NCBI GenBank assembly: GCA_034722955.1
Contig: JAYEOM010000013.1
Coordinates: 1-22,947, forward strand
Length of the DNA: 22,947 nucleotides
Source: Campylobacterota bacterium
GTDB taxonomy: Bacteria > Campylobacterota > Campylobacteria > Campylobacterales > Sulfurovaceae
Direction of reading: 5' to 3'
How positions within the stretch are numbered: position 1 is the first letter of the stretch; each line of letters opens with the position of its first letter. The position numbers were made by a program. Below, one piece after another: positions 12,001 through 18,000 of this stretch.

Positions 12001-15000
12001 ACTCAAATCAGCTGGTCCTTTCTGTACTTACGAAGAGGATGACCCCACCTATATAGTAGCAGTCAACTATTAAATGAGCTTTCTGTCAATCTTGAAGTGT
12101 AGCTTTAATCACACAGGATGATTATGGTAAGATATCAGATCTAAATCAGGGGATAATACAATCATGAGAAATATCTTATTGGCACTGCTGTTAACTATAG
12201 GTTTAACTGCAAGTGAAGTAGAGATCGATGAACGAACTACATTTGAGAAGATCACATTCAAGAGCAAAACACCTCTCACCCAAGAGGAGTTGGAGAGAAG
12301 AGTCATCTATACAAATATAGCAGCTAGTGGTTTAGCTCTAGCTTGGGGAACAGCCTTTTGGGACTACTTTAGTATATCTCCTGTAACTGCTGAGGAGGGT
12401 TGGTTTGCAGAAGATACCAAGTATGGAGGGGCAGATAAAGTTGGTCATATATACTCCACATATATCTTCTCTTTGGGTTTTTCGACACTCTATGAGTATT
12501 GGGGCTTAGAGGAGGAGAAGTCGATGGTCTATGGTCCACTCAGTGCTTGGATCTTCCAAGCGATGATGGAGGCAGGAGATTCGTTTAGCGAAACACAGGG
12601 CTTCTCATACGAAGATATAGTGATGAATACAGTAGGTGCTCTCTTTTACTATGTCCGAGAGAAGTATCCTGAAGTCAAAAATAAACTTGATCTTCGTATG
12701 GAGTATCTACCGGCATTTAGAGATGGTGACGAGGATATCTTCACGCAATACAACAACAAAAAGTATCTTTTGGCTCTCAAGCTTAGCGGCTTCAAGAGTA
12801 TGGAATCAACTATCTTGAAATATGGAGAGTTTCATCTAGGGTACTATACACGAGGCTATAAAAACAGTGATGAGTATACACAAAAAGAGCGTATTGCTTA
12901 TGTAGGCATAGGTATCAATGTAGCTGAAGTACTCAAAACTATGGGATGGTCAAGAACTAGTAAAATATTCAACTATCTTCAGTTGCCATACACCTCTGTA
13001 CCTTTTGGCTACGACTACAATTCACAAGAGTATGTTGCTCCATACTCCAGACCTTATCACGGCTACCATAATTAACCCGAATCAACTATCAATACTTGAT
13101 TTTTATGAAGGTGTTCTTCTTTCCATACTTTGCTACAAGATGATAGAGTTTTTTTGCATTCTTTGGATGGAGTCGAACACAACCATGTGAAGCTCTTCTT
13201 CCGAGTCTTCCTGTGGAGTTGGTACCGTGAATAGCATAATTACCATTGTAAAAGACAGAGTATGGCATAGGTGAATTATTGTATAGTCTAGAGTAGTGCA
13301 TCTTTTCGATAAATTGAGGTTGATAGTTACCAACCGGTGTCACATAACCTCTCCTAGCTGTAGATACAAGCCAAGTATAGATCAATTTGTCACCTCTATA
13401 AACCCTCATTTTTTGCTGAGAGAGATCAACTTGTGCAGTGATACGCCTCTCTTTTGCTCTTTTTACCGCTGCAACTCTCTTCACTCTTAACTTCTTTTGC
13501 TCTAGTCGCAACACTTCGAGTCTCTCTCTGTTCTTTTTCTCTCTTTGAAGTGCTATCTTTTCATCTATTAACCTCTGCTCCTCATCTGCCAAATATTTTG
13601 CAAGTGCAATAGCCTCTAGCCTTCTCTGCTCTTCTGCTTTGACCATCTCTATCCTATGGTTCTCTTCAGATAGCATATCAAATATATCTTGTTGCTCTTT
13701 ATCAATCTGATCAAACTGTTTCAGGATCAAACTCTCTCTTGCTGTGGGGGCATATATATTGGAGAGAAGCATAGTGGAGAGTATAATAAATATAGATAAT
13801 CTCTTGTATAGATACATAATTACGATTTACCCCTTTACAGTTAGTATTATATTAATTGATATGATACTATATTTTTACTGAAACTCTCTACAGCATTATT
13901 CCAATATCTTGAATAATCTTATCTACCACTCTAGCTCCTTTGGGCAAATCTATCTTTGACTTTTCAAATGCAAAGCTCTTATCTGAGATGGGAAGATTTC
14001 CTTTTTTAAGGATGCGGATATTACTCTCTCTGTCTCTGATGGTTATGACTTGGTTGGCATTGATGATATGTGGGGAGAATGGGATGTCGATATAGCCTTT
14101 TTTGATAGAGTTAAATACTTGTCTCCATAGCGTATCTGCTCCATCGTTAAATACAGCTTCTAGTATCTCATTGACCTCGTTAGTGAGGTTCTCCTCCTCT
14201 TCAGGATCGCCTACTTTTGGCAATCCTTTGAGCATACCTAGGGTATATTTGACATTGGCTACGGCTAGGGCATTTGCCTCTTTAGTAGGGATACCGAAGG
14301 CTTCGTTACGGGTCTTTGTGATGATCTTATCTGCTCCTACCATCGCTGCTATGACAGTGGAGGTGTTGATGAGAGAGTCAGAGTACTCTCTGTTGTACGG
14401 GAATGCACCCATCCATTGGTGGTAGACTAGATTGACGGTCGCATCTTCATGTCCAAACTTGTCTGCGTAGTGACGGGCTAACTTTTTGATGACATTGGAG
14501 GAGACTATATCTTGGATCATAGATCCTGTTTGTGAAAAGCTCACAGAGAATGACTTAACCCCCTCTTCTAGTGAGAGTAGCATCTCTAGGAGCTGTATGA
14601 CGATGACTATGGCTGGTGGTTGCAGTGTAGCTGAGAGTGGTCCAAATGATTCACGGTTGATCGGTTCATTTAGCTGGGAGTAGGAGGCACAGACTCTCTC
14701 TACATATTTCCAGTACAAAAATGCTTTATCCATAGGGAAGTTTTTGGAGTATGGGAGTAGATAGGTGATAGGTCCACCCTCTATCTCAAATATACCAGAA
14801 GCTAGTGCCACCTCTACCAAAAGTCTTGCATCTGGAGTACCATGACGCAGACTCACAGGGGTGTTGTAGTGTGTGATCATCTTGCGTGTGGTACGGTAAC
14901 CATGATTTACGAGTGGATAGCCATTGAGCATATCTGTATCGTTCTCTTCTGAGAGAGCCAACATCTTTTTGGCTGTGGCGTAGTCGTTGAGTCTGGTGTT

Positions 15001-18000
15001 GGAGTCGATGGTGAGTGGCAGGACATCGACATTGGCATCTTTGAACTCTTTGTAGAGTTGGAAAACTTTATCGTAAGTAGGGAAACCGCCACGAGGCTGC
15101 ACAAGTATCTCGCTAGAGTTCTTGAACCGATGAGAGATAAAGAGATCTTTACTAGCTCCAGCGATGAACTCTCGCACTTCATCAAAATCAAACCTATCTA
15201 TATACTCATTGCGAACGATGATCTCTCGTTCTCTTTGGAGTAGATTCATCTTCGCTCCTTTAGCAGTGCTTCGAGCTGGTCAATACCCTCGTTGAGATCT
15301 ACCTGATGAAACACTAGGTCAAATCCATAACTCTCAAATCTAGGTACTATCTCCTCAGCAGTCACTTCACCTACTACTAGATTGCCCCCTATCATAAATA
15401 CCACATCATGAAAATCATACTGATCTTTTAGAATACGCAGATCACGACACCACCCCTCAGCTTCTCCATTGAGTGATGAGATCAACAACACATCTGCATC
15501 TGTCTCGATCACTGCATCCATAAACTCTTCTAGGTAAGTATTGACTCCTAGATTGAAAACTTCAAAACCACGCTCTTCAAGAGAAATATCTATCAGTCTA
15601 TTGGCAACCACATGAATGTCATTGCCCACTACCCCTGTCACTACTTTCATCATCAAACTACTTTGTTTTAATTATTGCAATGATATTTTATCAAAGTTTG
15701 GTATAGGATTTGATTATAGAGAGCCTCTGATAACCTTATGATAGTAAAATACAAGAACTCTTTGAGTATAATATTATATAAAAATACCATAAGGCTACCC
15801 AACGAAATAAACACCCAAATAGCTTTCTTTTGTTGGAGTAGCCTAAACTGAAGGGAAAAGATGGAGTATATTACCGCAGATACATGTGATGAGCATCGAG
15901 ATGAAGCTCAAGTGCTTTCTCATGATTACAAATCATACGGAGGTATAGAGAACTGTTGTGGTCCTATCGCCACTATCAAGCTCGATGAGGAGAATAGTGA
16001 CTTGATCACAATGCTCAAAGAGCCAGGACTTGGACGCATCGCTGTTGTAGATGTAGGTGCTGCTTACTATGCAGTAGTCGGAGAAAATCTGATGAAATTT
16101 GCACGAGACAATGGATGGGTAGGTATCCTCATCAACGGATATGTACGAGATACCAAAATCACCAAAACTATCCCTGTAGGACTCTGGGCACTAGGTACTT
16201 GCTCGCGAAAAAGCCATGACAAAAAACCGGCTCAGAGAGATATAGAACTCACCTTTGGTGGTGTTATCTTCAACAATGATGAGTATCTTATGGGAGATCA
16301 CGATGGGATTATAGTGATATCCAAGGAGCTTCTAGGGGTGCCGTAGACAACCTTTCTCATATCCAAAATATATGAGACAAATAGCATAAAAGAGTAAAAA
16401 ATGATAAAAAAAACTATCTATCGGCGTATTGTGACGCTCATACTGATACTCATATCAATGATACTATTTTTGCTCATCATGTACAATGAAAACCCCATCA
16501 AAAATGGAAAAGAGACTCTCTACATATCTGGCTCCTCTATAGATGAAATCTCCAAATCTTTAGGGGATCATGGATATGAAGTCAATATCTTTGATCGTTT
16601 TCTATTGAATTTTGTAAACCTCCCCAAAGAGGGGTGGTATAGATTGGATAAGCCCGAAATGGGACGCTACTTTTTTTTTAAAAATCTACACAAAAAAGAG
16701 TCCAAAACTATCAGTATCAAGATATTTGCCGGTGAGACAACCAACGAGATGCTCTACCGTATATCAAGAGATATGATGCTAAACAAGACAAAACTAGAGG
16801 AGATTTATCGAGAGTACGCCCGTTTCAGAGAGGGAAATATCCTATCAGGCAGATATACCCTCTCACGATCTAGCAACGAAGAGACTGTGATGAGATATCT
16901 CTTGGATAACTCAAATACACAACTAGATATATTTGCCAAGGAGCAGTTCTGCAATGACCTCAATGCTACTCAACTAAGAGAAGCACTCATCATAGCATCA
17001 ATCATCCAAAAAGAGAGTAATGACAAAACAGAGATGTCATCCATCTCCTCTGTCATACACAATAGACTCAAAAAAAATATGCGACTACAGATGGATGGTA
17101 CACTCAACTATGGGGAATATGCCCGCACCATAGTCACCCCAGAACGGATCAAAAATGATAAAAGCCGTTTCAATACCTATAAGCACAAGGGTCTACCGCC
17201 TACTCCTCTAAGCGTCGTATCCATCGAAGCCCTCAAAGCGGCAACCACCCCTATGCAGAGTGAGTATCTATTTTTTATGCTCAACAAAAATGGAAAACAC
17301 GATTTTGCAGAGAGCTACAAAGAGCATCTAAAAAATGTCAAAGTTTTCAAGGCTTACTGTAGAGAACGAGATGAGAAAAAGAGTCTCGAAAAAGAAAAAA
17401 GAGAGATCAAAGTGAGAGAGAGTAATAAGTCATTATTGATTTTAGATGAGGATTAGTTTATACTTTCACCCATTTGTACTATTCAAGGGCTTGCCCCTAC
17501 AATGTGCAGTAGTTCATAGGGGTATCCCCCTTTCCCTTGTGGGTACCCAAAATATTGGATTTTATTTAATTAGCATCCCTTAAGACACTAGGGGGTGATT
17601 CACGATTCATTGCTAATAAAACCTAAAAAAAAGAAATGAGTGACCCACGAAATTTTAAGACTCAACCAGCTAAAATGCAGTAAGAACAAAAAGAAGTTAG
17701 CAAACTCTCTGAGGGTCATCGTCCCTTAGGCGTTATCATCAAGAAAGGTCTTTATGAACATAAAAACAATTTTATTGGTAACCATAAGCATCCTAGCTAC
17801 CAATGCAGTAACCTATAACCTAGCATACCAGCAGGCTGAACATGATACATTTTTGGCAAATGTAGCAGTTGATATTATGAGACTTAAAATGTACAATGAT
17901 ACAGGTGTATGTGACGACACTATAACATTAAATATTGAAGGTTTGTATATTGAAGCAGCTAATAGTGACAACATGGACAAGTTCTCATCAATTTGCAAAG

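Follow-up and report, generated by a model that had tools for sequence, protein, structure and literature searches.

Gene organization of the locus

The window, i.e., the entire 22,947-nt stretch of DNA analyzed, belongs to the genome of a Campylobacterota bacterium of the Sulfurovaceae. It contains glmE (13888..15249, minus strand), which encodes the 453-residue large subunit of glutamate mutase and was identified by its matches to PF06368, TIGR01503, and PDB entries, glmS (15246..15656, minus strand), which encodes the B12-binding small subunit (PF02310 and PRK02261), and rraA (15861..16346, plus strand), which encodes a 161-residue RraA-like protein of the HMG-aldolase fold (PF03737, PRK09372, and TIGR01935). 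glmS overlaps the start of glmE by 4 nt. Judged from the start codons in the sequence, glmS probably starts at the ATG at 15650, where its homologs also begin, giving a polypeptide of 134 residues. The region between the divergent glmS and rraA (15657..15860) may be a shared promoter region. A promoter scan found no site within 15657–15860 and no excess of sites across 13000–17800 (13 sites found vs. 12.9 expected), and the intergenic region matched no Rfam family (for example, that of a cobalamin riboswitch).

Two additional genes are located outside the window on contig C52 of the same genome: a glmL-like gene (C52:2156-3331; 391 residues; PF13941) and a gene for an ANL-fold protein previously called a ligase (C52:3892-5466; TIGR03098 below cut-off). 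They are separated by a 188-residue AAA_15 fragment of 29% GC, while the flanks are of 39–41% GC. All five genes are single-copy in this genome. The first-pass annotation had placed these genes in one unit that is split in this genome; the coordinates of all five were confirmed, and the split was borne out.

Next to rraA is mltG (yceG; 16401..17456, plus strand; TIGR00247 score of 120, cut-off of 103.4), which is a neighbor outside the five-gene unit. It was close to the cassette in 20 loci, including that of the window, and absent from most. A second copy of mltG is found on contig C122 of this genome.

Conservation and co-inheritance of the five genes

For the linkage counts, 80 of the 423 GTDB loci found with GlmE were fetched. 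Among them, glmE and glmL were adjacent in 69 of the 77 loci with room for both, and glmL and the ligase gene were adjacent in 66 of 66, with gaps of at most 116 nt. rraA was head-to-head with and upstream of glmS in 45 of 70 loci, including 2 with overlapping ORF calls and 4 with a spacing of 0.5–2.7 kb.

The genes also occurred together. GlmE was found in 32 of the 121 sampled genomes of the family, about a quarter, and the ligase was present in all 32. RraA, often on another contig, was found in 31 of the 32 GlmE-positive vs. 3 of the 89 GlmE-negative family genomes, and in 19 of 19 ligase-positive vs. none of 8 ligase-negative genomes of the class, although such co-occurrence counts overstate independence because the genomes are related. 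The identities among the ligases of different lineages ranged from 55 to 81%. In a genome of the same genus without GlmE and RraA (G322), only a deleted, frameshifted remnant of the ligase gene was left. In the two largest families of this class, no cassette was found among 214 genomes sampled. Intact cassettes were also identified on metagenome contigs on which the genes around them seem gammaproteobacterial. Thus, as first proposed, rraA, divergent from glmS-glmE-glmL-ligase, forms a conserved unit with them, and in many free-living sulfur bacteria the five genes are retained or lost together. RraA genuinely belongs to this unit, as it follows GlmE even when unlinked.

Glutamate mutase

GlmE matched PF06368 with 394 bits (cut-off of 26.6) and, as noted before, fell just under the curated cut-off of TIGR01503 (377.4 vs. 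390.1 bits; E = 8.8e-113). Its best PDB matches were 6h9e_B/1cb7_B (E = 1e-84). R53, R86, R135, E157, and Y163 of GlmE aligned with R66, R100, R149, E171, and Y177 of the arginine claw and glutamate site, and G55 and N109 aligned with G68 and N123 of the adenosine cavity, following the residue roles outlined for glutamate mutase (PMC10947579). Claw and cavity residues were at least 97% conserved among 109 sequences. That GlmE, which keeps all checked glutamate-binding residues, is a true glutamate mutase is well supported by sequence.

GlmS matched PF02310 with 47 bits and PRK02261 with 168.8 (cut-off of 110), and its D13-x-H15, which we take to be the cobalt-ligand motif, was conserved in 105 sequences. 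The GlmL-like protein matched PF13941 with 94.3 bits (cut-off of 27) and was far under the cut-off of NF040745 (76.1 vs. 475); its two phosphate motifs, presumably ASKHA-like, were invariant in 64 sequences. With adenosylcobalamin, GlmS and GlmE would convert L-glutamate to (2S,3S)-3-methylaspartate, and the GlmL-like ATPase would be a reactivating chaperone of the mutase.

Fate of 3-methylaspartate

Consistent with the earlier claim that methylaspartate ammonia-lyase is missing, TIGR01502 was over cut-off in none of the 47 cassette genomes, the 14 control genomes having held no positive control. The sole PF07476 match in this genome (32.5 bits), a 355-residue enolase-superfamily protein on contig C11, looked like a dipeptide epimerase on visual inspection. 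Lack of an ammonia-lyase means that 3-methylaspartate must go elsewhere. An undescribed pathway had been proposed for it; a fate other than deamination stood, but the steps after 3-methylaspartate have probably been described at least in part, as an aminotransferase together with RraA fits the known route from methylaspartate to 2-oxobutyrate.

The RraA-like protein matched PF03737 with 115 bits and exceeded the cut-offs of PRK09372 (144.3 vs. 136) and TIGR01935 (131.1 vs. 123.8). Its R96-D97 and D7/D10 were conserved in 65 sequences, and R96 is presumably the equivalent of Arg-123 of the Pseudomonas putida aldolase. HMG/CHA aldolases are described as decarboxylating oxaloacetate, and most RraA homologs as likely class II aldolases (PMC5065237). 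In 7 of the 22 rraA-bearing metagenome loci, a gene for an AspC-like protein was convergent with rraA; the protein scored 573 against PRK09257 (cut-off of 377) and had aspartate aminotransferases as best PDB matches (E = 1e-130), and the copies were 77–89% identical to one another. Moreover, serC was directly behind rraA in 5 of the 14 loci around rraA genes un- or loosely linked to glmE. It was found in 14 of the 121 family genomes, 13 of which were GlmE-positive, but was absent from 19 of the 32 GlmE-positive genomes, and the serC-rraA links stem from two lineages. Most Campylobacterota cassettes had no linked aminotransferase.

The AspC-like aminotransferase beside rraA points to a route from glutamate via 3-methylaspartate and 3-methyloxaloacetate to 2-oxobutyrate. 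In the second step, an aminotransferase would convert 3-methylaspartate to 3-methyloxaloacetate; some lineages would use the cassette-linked AspC-like protein for this step, whereas Campylobacterota would use either a host enzyme or, perhaps, the linked SerC. In the third step, the RraA-like protein as a class II aldolase would decarboxylate 3-methyloxaloacetate to 2-oxobutyrate, in the way that enzymes of this kind act on oxaloacetate. 2-Oxobutyrate would then be used for isoleucine or propionyl-CoA, and the net conversion would be 2-oxoglutarate to 2-oxobutyrate and CO2. In Escherichia coli, methylaspartate is reported to rescue a 2-ketobutyrate auxotroph, presumably via AspC and decarboxylation, and methyloxaloacetate to decarboxylate spontaneously (bioRxiv 10.1101/2025.08.26.672309). 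The latter makes RraA less needed and counts against this route, as does threonine dehydratase IlvA, which was over cut-off in all five genomes tested (two with and three without the cassette), so that the cassette would not be needed for isoleucine. As a whole, a dedicated glutamate-mutase route to 2-oxobutyrate with a non-standard ANL accessory is the interpretation that we tentatively prefer, with slightly less than an even chance.

The same enzymes might also build a larger amino acid. In the HPHT branch of nikkomycin biosynthesis, the mutase NikU/V, the ANL ligase NikE, the aldolase NikB, and the aminotransferase NikT work together, and the same four enzyme classes are found where aspC is linked to the cassette. 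RraA would then add the enolate formed on decarboxylation of 3-methyloxaloacetate to an aldehyde derived from the ligase substrate, in line with the enolate intermediate described for RraA-fold class II aldolases (PMC5065237). No acyl-CoA reductase or dehydrogenase was recurrent in the cassettes of 80 genome and 80 metagenome loci, however, and the ligase motifs are degenerate, which renders such a synthesis highly improbable.

The ANL-fold protein

As first reported, the nearest family of the ligase is TIGR03098 (34% identity), whose cut-off it does not reach (460.3 vs. 592.35 bits). The top PDB sequence match of its core (residues 151–345) was VinN (3wv4/3wvn; E = 2e-12), which was also among the tied top matches in structure comparison (Z of 45.5, rmsd of 2.3 over 377 residues). 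D230, F231, S299, K330, and R331 of VinN, numbered by counting with a 16-residue offset, map to D208, Y209, S280, F311, and R312, and the shortened beta13-beta14 loop of the VinN type is kept without any gap relative to VinN. In the family alignment of 310 distinct sequences, D208, Y209, S280, R312, D403, R418, and R429 were found in all 310, E309 in 309, and K424 in 305. The A5 Glu (E309), A7 Asp (D403), and A8 Arg/Lys/Arg (R418, K424, and R429) are therefore present, including the equivalents of E327, K434, and R439.

The A3 P-loop, already noted as atypical, had Phe at position 164, in place of the Ser that usually follows the first Thr/Ser, in 308 of the 310 sequences, and the canonical A10 adenylation Lys (K517 of GrsA) was found in only 74 of the 306 scored, while NRPS controls, whose search patterns presuppose part of the motif, had the Ser in 790 of 791 and the Lys in 468 of 476. 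The position of VinN K330 was Phe in 243 and Leu in 67 of the 310. Mean conservation of the A10 loop was 0.56 vs. 0.74 overall, and that of A4, A5, and A7 was 0.94–0.98. Among the 301 sequences in which the A10 loop was scored, 282 had a Lys somewhere in it (-1, 74; -2, 126; -3, 64; -7, 196) and 19 had none; K483, R358, and K142 were invariant, and the P-loop Lys was K/R in 291 of 310. Adenylation via a shifted residue may thus persist. No gene for a carrier protein, decarboxylase, or acceptor was recurrent beside the cassette in 80 genome loci and 80 flanked metagenome loci, and the three ACP and three PF02784 matches of this genome sit, as judged by eye, in other contexts. With the P-loop Ser lost, the A10 Lys unfixed and no such genes recurring nearby, the designation AMP-forming ligase was not supported in that form. 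By sequence, the protein retains a VinN-type beta-amino-acid pocket and an AMP site, and adenylation may be absent.

It is nevertheless conceivable that the protein is an active VinN-like enzyme, which adenylates C4 of 3-methylaspartate via a shifted basic residue and transfers the product to an acceptor that is not part of the cassette, such as an amine, CoA, a carrier protein, or an envelope polymer, with RraA and the aminotransferase clearing excess product. VinN as the best match, the mapped pocket with its short loop, and the conserved Mg/AMP residues are all consistent with this, and a mutase with a VinN-type enzyme is a pairing described as established (PMC10662134). The replaced P-loop Ser and K330 equivalent and the unfixed A10 Lys argue against it, as do the missing decarboxylase and carrier protein, because both canonical TIGR03098 proteins examined keep the two motifs and sit beside such genes. 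Moreover, the pocket Asp and Arg are common to TIGR03098, so the pocket may be inherited. We consider an active enzyme of this type rather unlikely.

Alternatively, the protein might make 3-methylaspartyl-C4-CoA, which would lose ammonia to give mesaconyl-CoA and so bypass the ammonia-lyase in glutamate breakdown. The absence of this lyase from 47 of 47 genomes and the conserved thiolation-side K424, R429, and E309 fit such a reaction. The AlphaFold model, weak evidence here, also superposed on thioester-forming structures (TM of 0.82–0.85, rmsd of 3–4) rather than adenylation-state structures (rmsd of ~11). A mesaconyl-CoA hydratase, transferase, or CitE-type lyase was not recurrent in the neighborhoods of the cassette, to which the search was confined, however, RraA and AspC would be left unexplained, and the reaction depends on an adenylation half-reaction that looks degenerate. 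The chance of such a bypass appears very slight.

In the route to 2-oxobutyrate, the ANL-fold protein would be an obligatory fifth member, descended from beta-amino-acid adenylating enzymes of the TIGR03098/VinN type. It would still bind an AMP moiety together with an amino acid resembling aspartate, its usual adenylation probably being lost, and would most likely act with GlmL as an accessory in product sensing, channeling, or cofactor upkeep, which is the least certain part. Given that the route needs no ligase and that the ligase is present in 32 of 32 GlmE-positive genomes, this interpretation leaves the best-conserved accessory unexplained.

Supply of adenosylcobalamin

CobA/BtuR (PF02572) was over cut-off in 1 and PduO/EutT (PF01923) in none of the 47 cassette genomes, complete genomes included; in the 14 control genomes, the same profiles matched 7 and 9, respectively. 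Thus, no cob(I)alamin adenosyltransferase of a known type was seen in 46 of the 47 cassette genomes, even though adenosylcobalamin is required by the mutase. Three cob clusters, of the cobinamide-salvage or de novo type, had no adenosyltransferase among their scanned genes. The gap looks lineage-wide, as PF02572 was over cut-off in none of the 121 genomes of the family, whether or not they carry the cassette. An unlinked enzyme of another type or import of intact adenosylcobalamin via a BtuB-like receptor would explain it; such a receptor was present in 5 of 5 genomes, with scores that fell short of the cut-off.

This gap raises the question of whether the ANL-fold protein, by itself or together with GlmL, makes or regenerates adenosylcobalamin in place of an adenosyltransferase, so that the cassette would be self-sufficient. 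GlmE has an intact adenosine cavity, and the ligase accompanies glmL, has lost adenylation motifs, and keeps its adenosine/AMP residues; the legend of a published figure also draws CobA with enterobacterial glm clusters (PMC4682846). However, the gap extends to genomes without the cassette, either of the above explanations would suffice for it, and one genome with CobA (G091) retains the cassette. Moreover, the strictly conserved amino-acid pocket would be superfluous for such a role, and the site of an ANL protein would probably keep cobalamin from reaching C5'. We therefore regard a role in cofactor supply as distinctly improbable.

Implications

Free-living Campylobacterota rank among the major primary producers of vents, seeps, and sulfidic sediments. 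The unit occurs in 32 of the 121 sampled genomes of this family. To our knowledge, the methylaspartate route to an isoleucine precursor, known since the 1960s, has been seen only as a side activity or underground metabolism. If the route to 2-oxobutyrate proposed here is correct, it gains dedicated genes, and the RraA-like protein gains a physiological substrate. A bolder possibility, to which we give little credence, is a self-sufficient B12 radical module that converts glutamate to 2-oxobutyrate while ANL/GlmL adenosylate or regenerate the cofactor. It would add to the cob(I)alamin adenosyltransferases a fourth fold, unrelated to the others, and explain how an adenosylcobalamin enzyme runs in a lineage without a known adenosyltransferase.

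Comparison with known systems

PtmA2 of platensimycin biosynthesis is described as a non-adenylating ANL enzyme that catalyzes only the second half-reaction (PMC6594144). Compared by description rather than residue by residue, it is a precedent for a non-adenylating ANL fold; it has an adenylating partner, PtmA1, and none was seen in the cassette. Similar to the "exosortase A-associated" ligases of TIGR03098, the cassette ligase has the A5 Arg as well as the Asp of the pocket. Unlike them, it is below the family cut-off and has no adjacent decarboxylase, while the two canonical members examined have retained both the P-loop Ser and the A10 Lys and are found in polysaccharide loci with a TIGR03099 decarboxylase and an ACP.

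The vicenistatin-type starter unit is outlined as involving the mutase VinH/VinI, the adenylation enzyme VinN, the carrier protein VinL, and the decarboxylase VinO (PMC10662134; PMC11253843). The cassette shares with it a mutase and a stand-alone ANL protein with the D230/F231/S299/R331 equivalents and the short loop. Relative to the set so outlined, it lacks a carrier protein, a decarboxylase, an acyltransferase, and a PKS, has GlmL and RraA, and is widespread in chemolithotrophic and marine bacteria; relative to VinN, K330 is replaced, the P-loop Ser is Phe, and the A10 Lys is not fixed.

The fermentative operon glmS-glmL-glmE-mal is described for Clostridia and Enterobacteriaceae (PMC4682846). 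Similar to it, the cassette encodes GlmS, a GlmE whose arginine claw is complete, and a protein of the GlmL/MutL family. Different from the operon as described there, the gene order of the cassette is S-E-L, its GlmL-like protein is short and far under the NF040745 cut-off, and it has no ammonia-lyase (47 genomes) and no linked mesaconase, citramalate lyase, or CobA.

Finally, E. coli W/Crookes is described as using the mutase, transamination presumably by AspC, and decarboxylation to form 2-ketobutyrate for isoleucine (bioRxiv 10.1101/2025.08.26.672309; PMC7476758). The cassette likewise encodes a mutase and a candidate decarboxylase, joined in some lineages by an AspC-like protein; its candidate decarboxylase is of the RraA fold, and the ANL-fold protein is extra. 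Whereas the E. coli route, as portrayed in these accounts, is underground metabolism that relies on promiscuous enzymes and on a spontaneous decarboxylation, the cassette is proposed to be a dedicated, co-inherited set.

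Gene content and linkage of the cassette

The glmE gene of the window (13888-15249, minus strand) scored 377.4 bits against TIGR01503, whose cut-off is 390.1, and glmS (15246-15656, minus strand) scored 168.8 against PRK02261 (cut-off 110). Head-to-head with glmS is the gene for an RraA-like protein (15861-16346, plus strand; PRK09372, 144.3 vs. a cut-off of 136). Contig C52 of the same genome carries a short GlmL-like gene (C52:2156-3331) and a gene for an ANL-fold ligase of 524 amino acid residues (C52:3892-5466; TIGR03098, 460 vs. a cut-off of 592). Re-scoring on both contigs agreed with the coordinates and scores of the first-pass annotation. 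A fragment of an AAA_15 ATPase gene, of 188 codons and 29% GC, is inserted between glmL and the ligase gene (L001:3335-3901, on C52) and overlaps the start of the latter by 10 nt; two loci of close relatives, L105 and L110, are free of it at this place. Around the cassette genes in the window, no riboswitch or promoter signal was found above chance. The adjacent mltG was rejected as a cassette member, as its adjacency was judged to be positional.

Two further regions of this genome were recorded. Positions 18368-19372 of the window encode a PD-(D/E)XK nuclease-family protein (Rpn-like, PF12784) with a run of short Gly/Lys/Arg/Glu repeats at its C-terminus. Another contig (C65:4900-12019) contains genes that, judged by eye, encode pyruvate-dehydrogenase-type E1/E2, an acyl-CoA synthetase, a carrier protein and lipoate functions, with an N-gap within the E1-beta gene.

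A GTDB scan with GlmE gave 423 relatives, of which the best 80 loci were compared; the titles that named a lineage named Campylobacterota. Among these 80, glmE adjoined glmL in 69 of the 77 loci with room, glmL adjoined the ligase gene in 66/66, rraA and glmS were head-to-head in 45/70, and no further gene recurred across lineages beside the cassette. GlmE was found in 32 of 121 sampled genomes of the family. The ligase was found in all 32, as partial matches only in two, and RraA in 31 of them, often on a separate contig, compared with 3 of the 89 GlmE-negative genomes. Across the class, 20 of 301 genomes had the ligase, with none in the two largest families (0/90 and 0/124); RraA was in 19/19 ligase-positive class genomes (source genome excluded) and in 0/8 chosen ligase-negatives. 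Because the genomes are related, these co-occurrence counts are not independent events. The earlier proposal of one conserved unit that is split in the source genome is borne out by this linkage and co-occurrence. The cassette is real and conserved and is made of known enzyme classes.

The ligase family was also matched in two GlmE-negative family genomes. One, G309, is an assembly of 370 contigs and has an intact glmL-ligase pair. The other, G322, is of the same genus as the source genome; it has a ligase pseudogene with an internal deletion of about 115 codons and a change of frame (L228:5350-6224, on its contig C18), and neither GlmE nor RraA was found there. This remnant is a cassette caught in decay. 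Four more matches in family genomes, at 26-31% identity, were discounted as belonging to other ANL enzymes.

A motif scan of metagenomes returned at least 120 stretches, 80 of them with flanks. Intact cassettes were among the stretches listed, and their neighbors appear to be gammaproteobacterial. At several of the Arcobacter-type loci L060-L073, the cassette is flanked on one side by a cytochrome c gene and on the other by what was judged by eye to be a gene for monomeric isocitrate dehydrogenase, and rraA is not next to it. In one genome (G243, L220:7301-9036), rraA and glmS are separated by a PLP gene of threonine-aldolase-like type (PF01212, 335 bits) and by a gene for an alpha/beta hydrolase; in another (G275), the hydrolase gene lies there alone.

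Glutamate mutase and the fate of 3-methylaspartate

Alignment with GlmE of Clostridium cochlearium showed that R66, R100, R149, E171, Y177, G68, and N123 are all present in the cassette GlmE, and each was at least 97% conserved among 109 sequences. Y181, F216, H291, K326, and E330, which we take to be positions with known roles in GlmE, were likewise retained. The roles of the former seven are given in the accessible part of PMC10947579. By its residues, the cassette mutase is predicted to be a true glutamate mutase. For fused forms of GlmL there were just two weak matches (26-27%), and a GlmL profile had no significant match in the PDB. The methylaspartate ammonia-lyase TIGR01502 was over cut-off in 0/47 cassette genomes, in keeping with the first-pass annotation; the control genomes included no positive for this model.

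Among the matches listed, an AspC-like aminotransferase gene was convergent on rraA in 7 of 22 rraA-bearing metagenome loci. Its product scored 573 against PRK09257 (cut-off 377), its best PDB matches were aspartate aminotransferases, and, where its dicarboxylate-binding motif was aligned, it retained the Arg that presumably binds the dicarboxylate. No linked AspC-like gene was found at the fetched Campylobacterota loci. In addition, serC-serA was directly behind rraA in 5 of 14 fetched loci (serC alone in one of these) and behind the ligase gene in four others; serC was found in 14 of the 121 family genomes, 13 of them GlmE-positive. This association comes from two lineages and serves as a lead rather than a general rule. 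The source genome has a second, short serA with serC (C38:20296-22562; also L084:6845-9104), and its native long serA is on C95. The short pair is patchy and is repeatedly beside rraA or the ligase gene.

Together, the mutase, an aminotransferase and the RraA-like protein would convert glutamate to 3-methylaspartate, a well supported step, then probably to 3-methyloxaloacetate by transamination, and the latter to 2-oxobutyrate, putatively by the RraA-like protein. RraA-fold aldolases decarboxylate oxaloacetate via an enolate (PMC5065237, in part). An Escherichia coli 2-ketobutyrate auxotroph was rescued by methylaspartate, presumably through AspC transamination and decarboxylation (bioRxiv 10.1101/2025.08.26.672309, excerpt), and the available text of PMC7476758 counts a "glutamate mutase pathway" among the routes to 2-ketobutyrate. 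That the cassette serves only to fill a gap in isoleucine synthesis was rejected: IlvA was present in 5/5 genomes tested, cassette-bearing or not, and citramalate synthase was over cut-off in 0/5. Because IlvA is present in all five, the 2-oxobutyrate route would offer a second way rather than make up for a missing one. Our best reading, offered tentatively, is a dedicated glutamate to 2-oxobutyrate route with a non-adenylating ANL accessory; against it, the route gives the ligase no catalytic step.

Supply of adenosylcobalamin

Glutamate mutase requires adenosylcobalamin. Of the known adenosyltransferases, CobA/BtuR was over cut-off in 1/47 cassette genomes and 7/14 control genomes, and PduO/EutT in 0/47 and 9/14, respectively. 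Their near absence suggests a repurposing of the glmL-linked ligase to handle the B12 cofactor, which we consider improbable. The gap is lineage-wide, with PF02572 (CobA/BtuR) over cut-off in 0/121 family genomes. Moreover, cob clusters of the cobinamide-salvage and de novo types from three Campylobacterota cassette genomes (L230:3126-15091, L231:4131-17300, and L232:5902-19900) had no adenosyltransferase among the 35 genes scanned. Their cobinamide-salvage genes are btuB-like, btuFCD-like, cobU, cbiP, cbiB, cobS, and bluB-like. Either the cobamides of these clusters are made without adenosylation or another enzyme, yet to be recognized, exists. Import of the intact coenzyme, or such an enzyme encoded at an unlinked site, is at least as likely as a role of the ligase; a BtuB-like receptor was present, below cut-off, in 5/5 genomes tested.

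MetH was found in 113/121 family genomes, so simple dependence of cassette presence on B12 access was rejected. Because class II ribonucleotide reductase (NrdJ) was found in 0/121, the family offers no internal control for the gap. In the source genome, B12-binding domains were confined to GlmS, MetH and one corrinoid protein. The last, unexpected in this lineage, is a stand-alone protein (PF02310, 76 bits; C18:14325-17480). Its gene is followed by one that, on inspection by eye, resembles a methyltransferase gene of the uroporphyrinogen-decarboxylase family, and by a PAS sensor gene.

The ligase and comparison with known systems

VinN was the best PDB sequence match for the ligase core. Its beta-amino-acid binding is defined by D230, F231, S299, K330, R331 and a shortened loop, according to the accessible part of a review (PMC11253843). 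In an ungapped alignment, these residues correspond to D208, Y209, S280, F311, and R312 of the ligase. The pocket Asp and Arg may be inherited, since both aligned canonical TIGR03098 proteins also have them. Pocket, AMP and thiolation residues were near-invariant among 310 distinct family sequences (D208, R312, D403, R418, and R429 310/310; E309 309/310; K424 305/310). The P-loop, flagged earlier as atypical, is indeed so, with Phe at position 164 in 308/310, and the canonical A10 position held Lys in only 74/306 (Gln 91, Glu 52, Val 48, Arg 13). NRPS control domains had P-loop Ser in 790/791 and A10 Lys in 468/476, by search patterns that presuppose part of the motif. As worded in the first-pass annotation, the label "AMP-forming ligase" is not supported. 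The ligase looks half-disarmed in sequence, with the pocket, AMP and thiolation sides kept and the adenylation side degenerate.

An active VinN-like ligase with its acceptor outside the cassette is the main rival reading, which we consider rather unlikely. Counted against a non-adenylating ligase are a Lys somewhere within the A10 loop in 282/301 ligases, several invariant basic residues, and Lys or Arg at the P-loop Lys position in 291/310. An alignment-based AlphaFold model (pLDDT 87) gives a non-adenylating accessory weak support, as its predicted fold was closer to thioester-forming structures (TM 0.82-0.85) than to adenylation-state ones. PtmA2 is an earlier example of an ANL enzyme that does not adenylate (PMC6594144, excerpt).

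A library search with the ligase at 50% identity returned mostly multimodular NRPS, with one single-domain relative, P0122 (55%), in the top 150. No relatives were found on viral contigs, plasmids gave only TIGR03098-level matches (34-35% identity, among 20 of 35 matches), and an ESM Atlas search gave AMP-binding clusters only.

The cassette is apparently undescribed: no title or abstract in a full-text literature search, with most subscription papers outside its scope, described a glutamate mutase-RraA-ligase cassette, and the available part of PMC2667541 holds nothing specific to it. Canonical glm gene clusters and a canonical cluster with a mutase and a VinN-type enzyme are covered in the accessible parts of PMC4682846 and PMC10662134, respectively. 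Canonical TIGR03098 genes lie beside genes for a decarboxylase and a carrier protein, whereas the cassette ligase gene is accompanied by neither.
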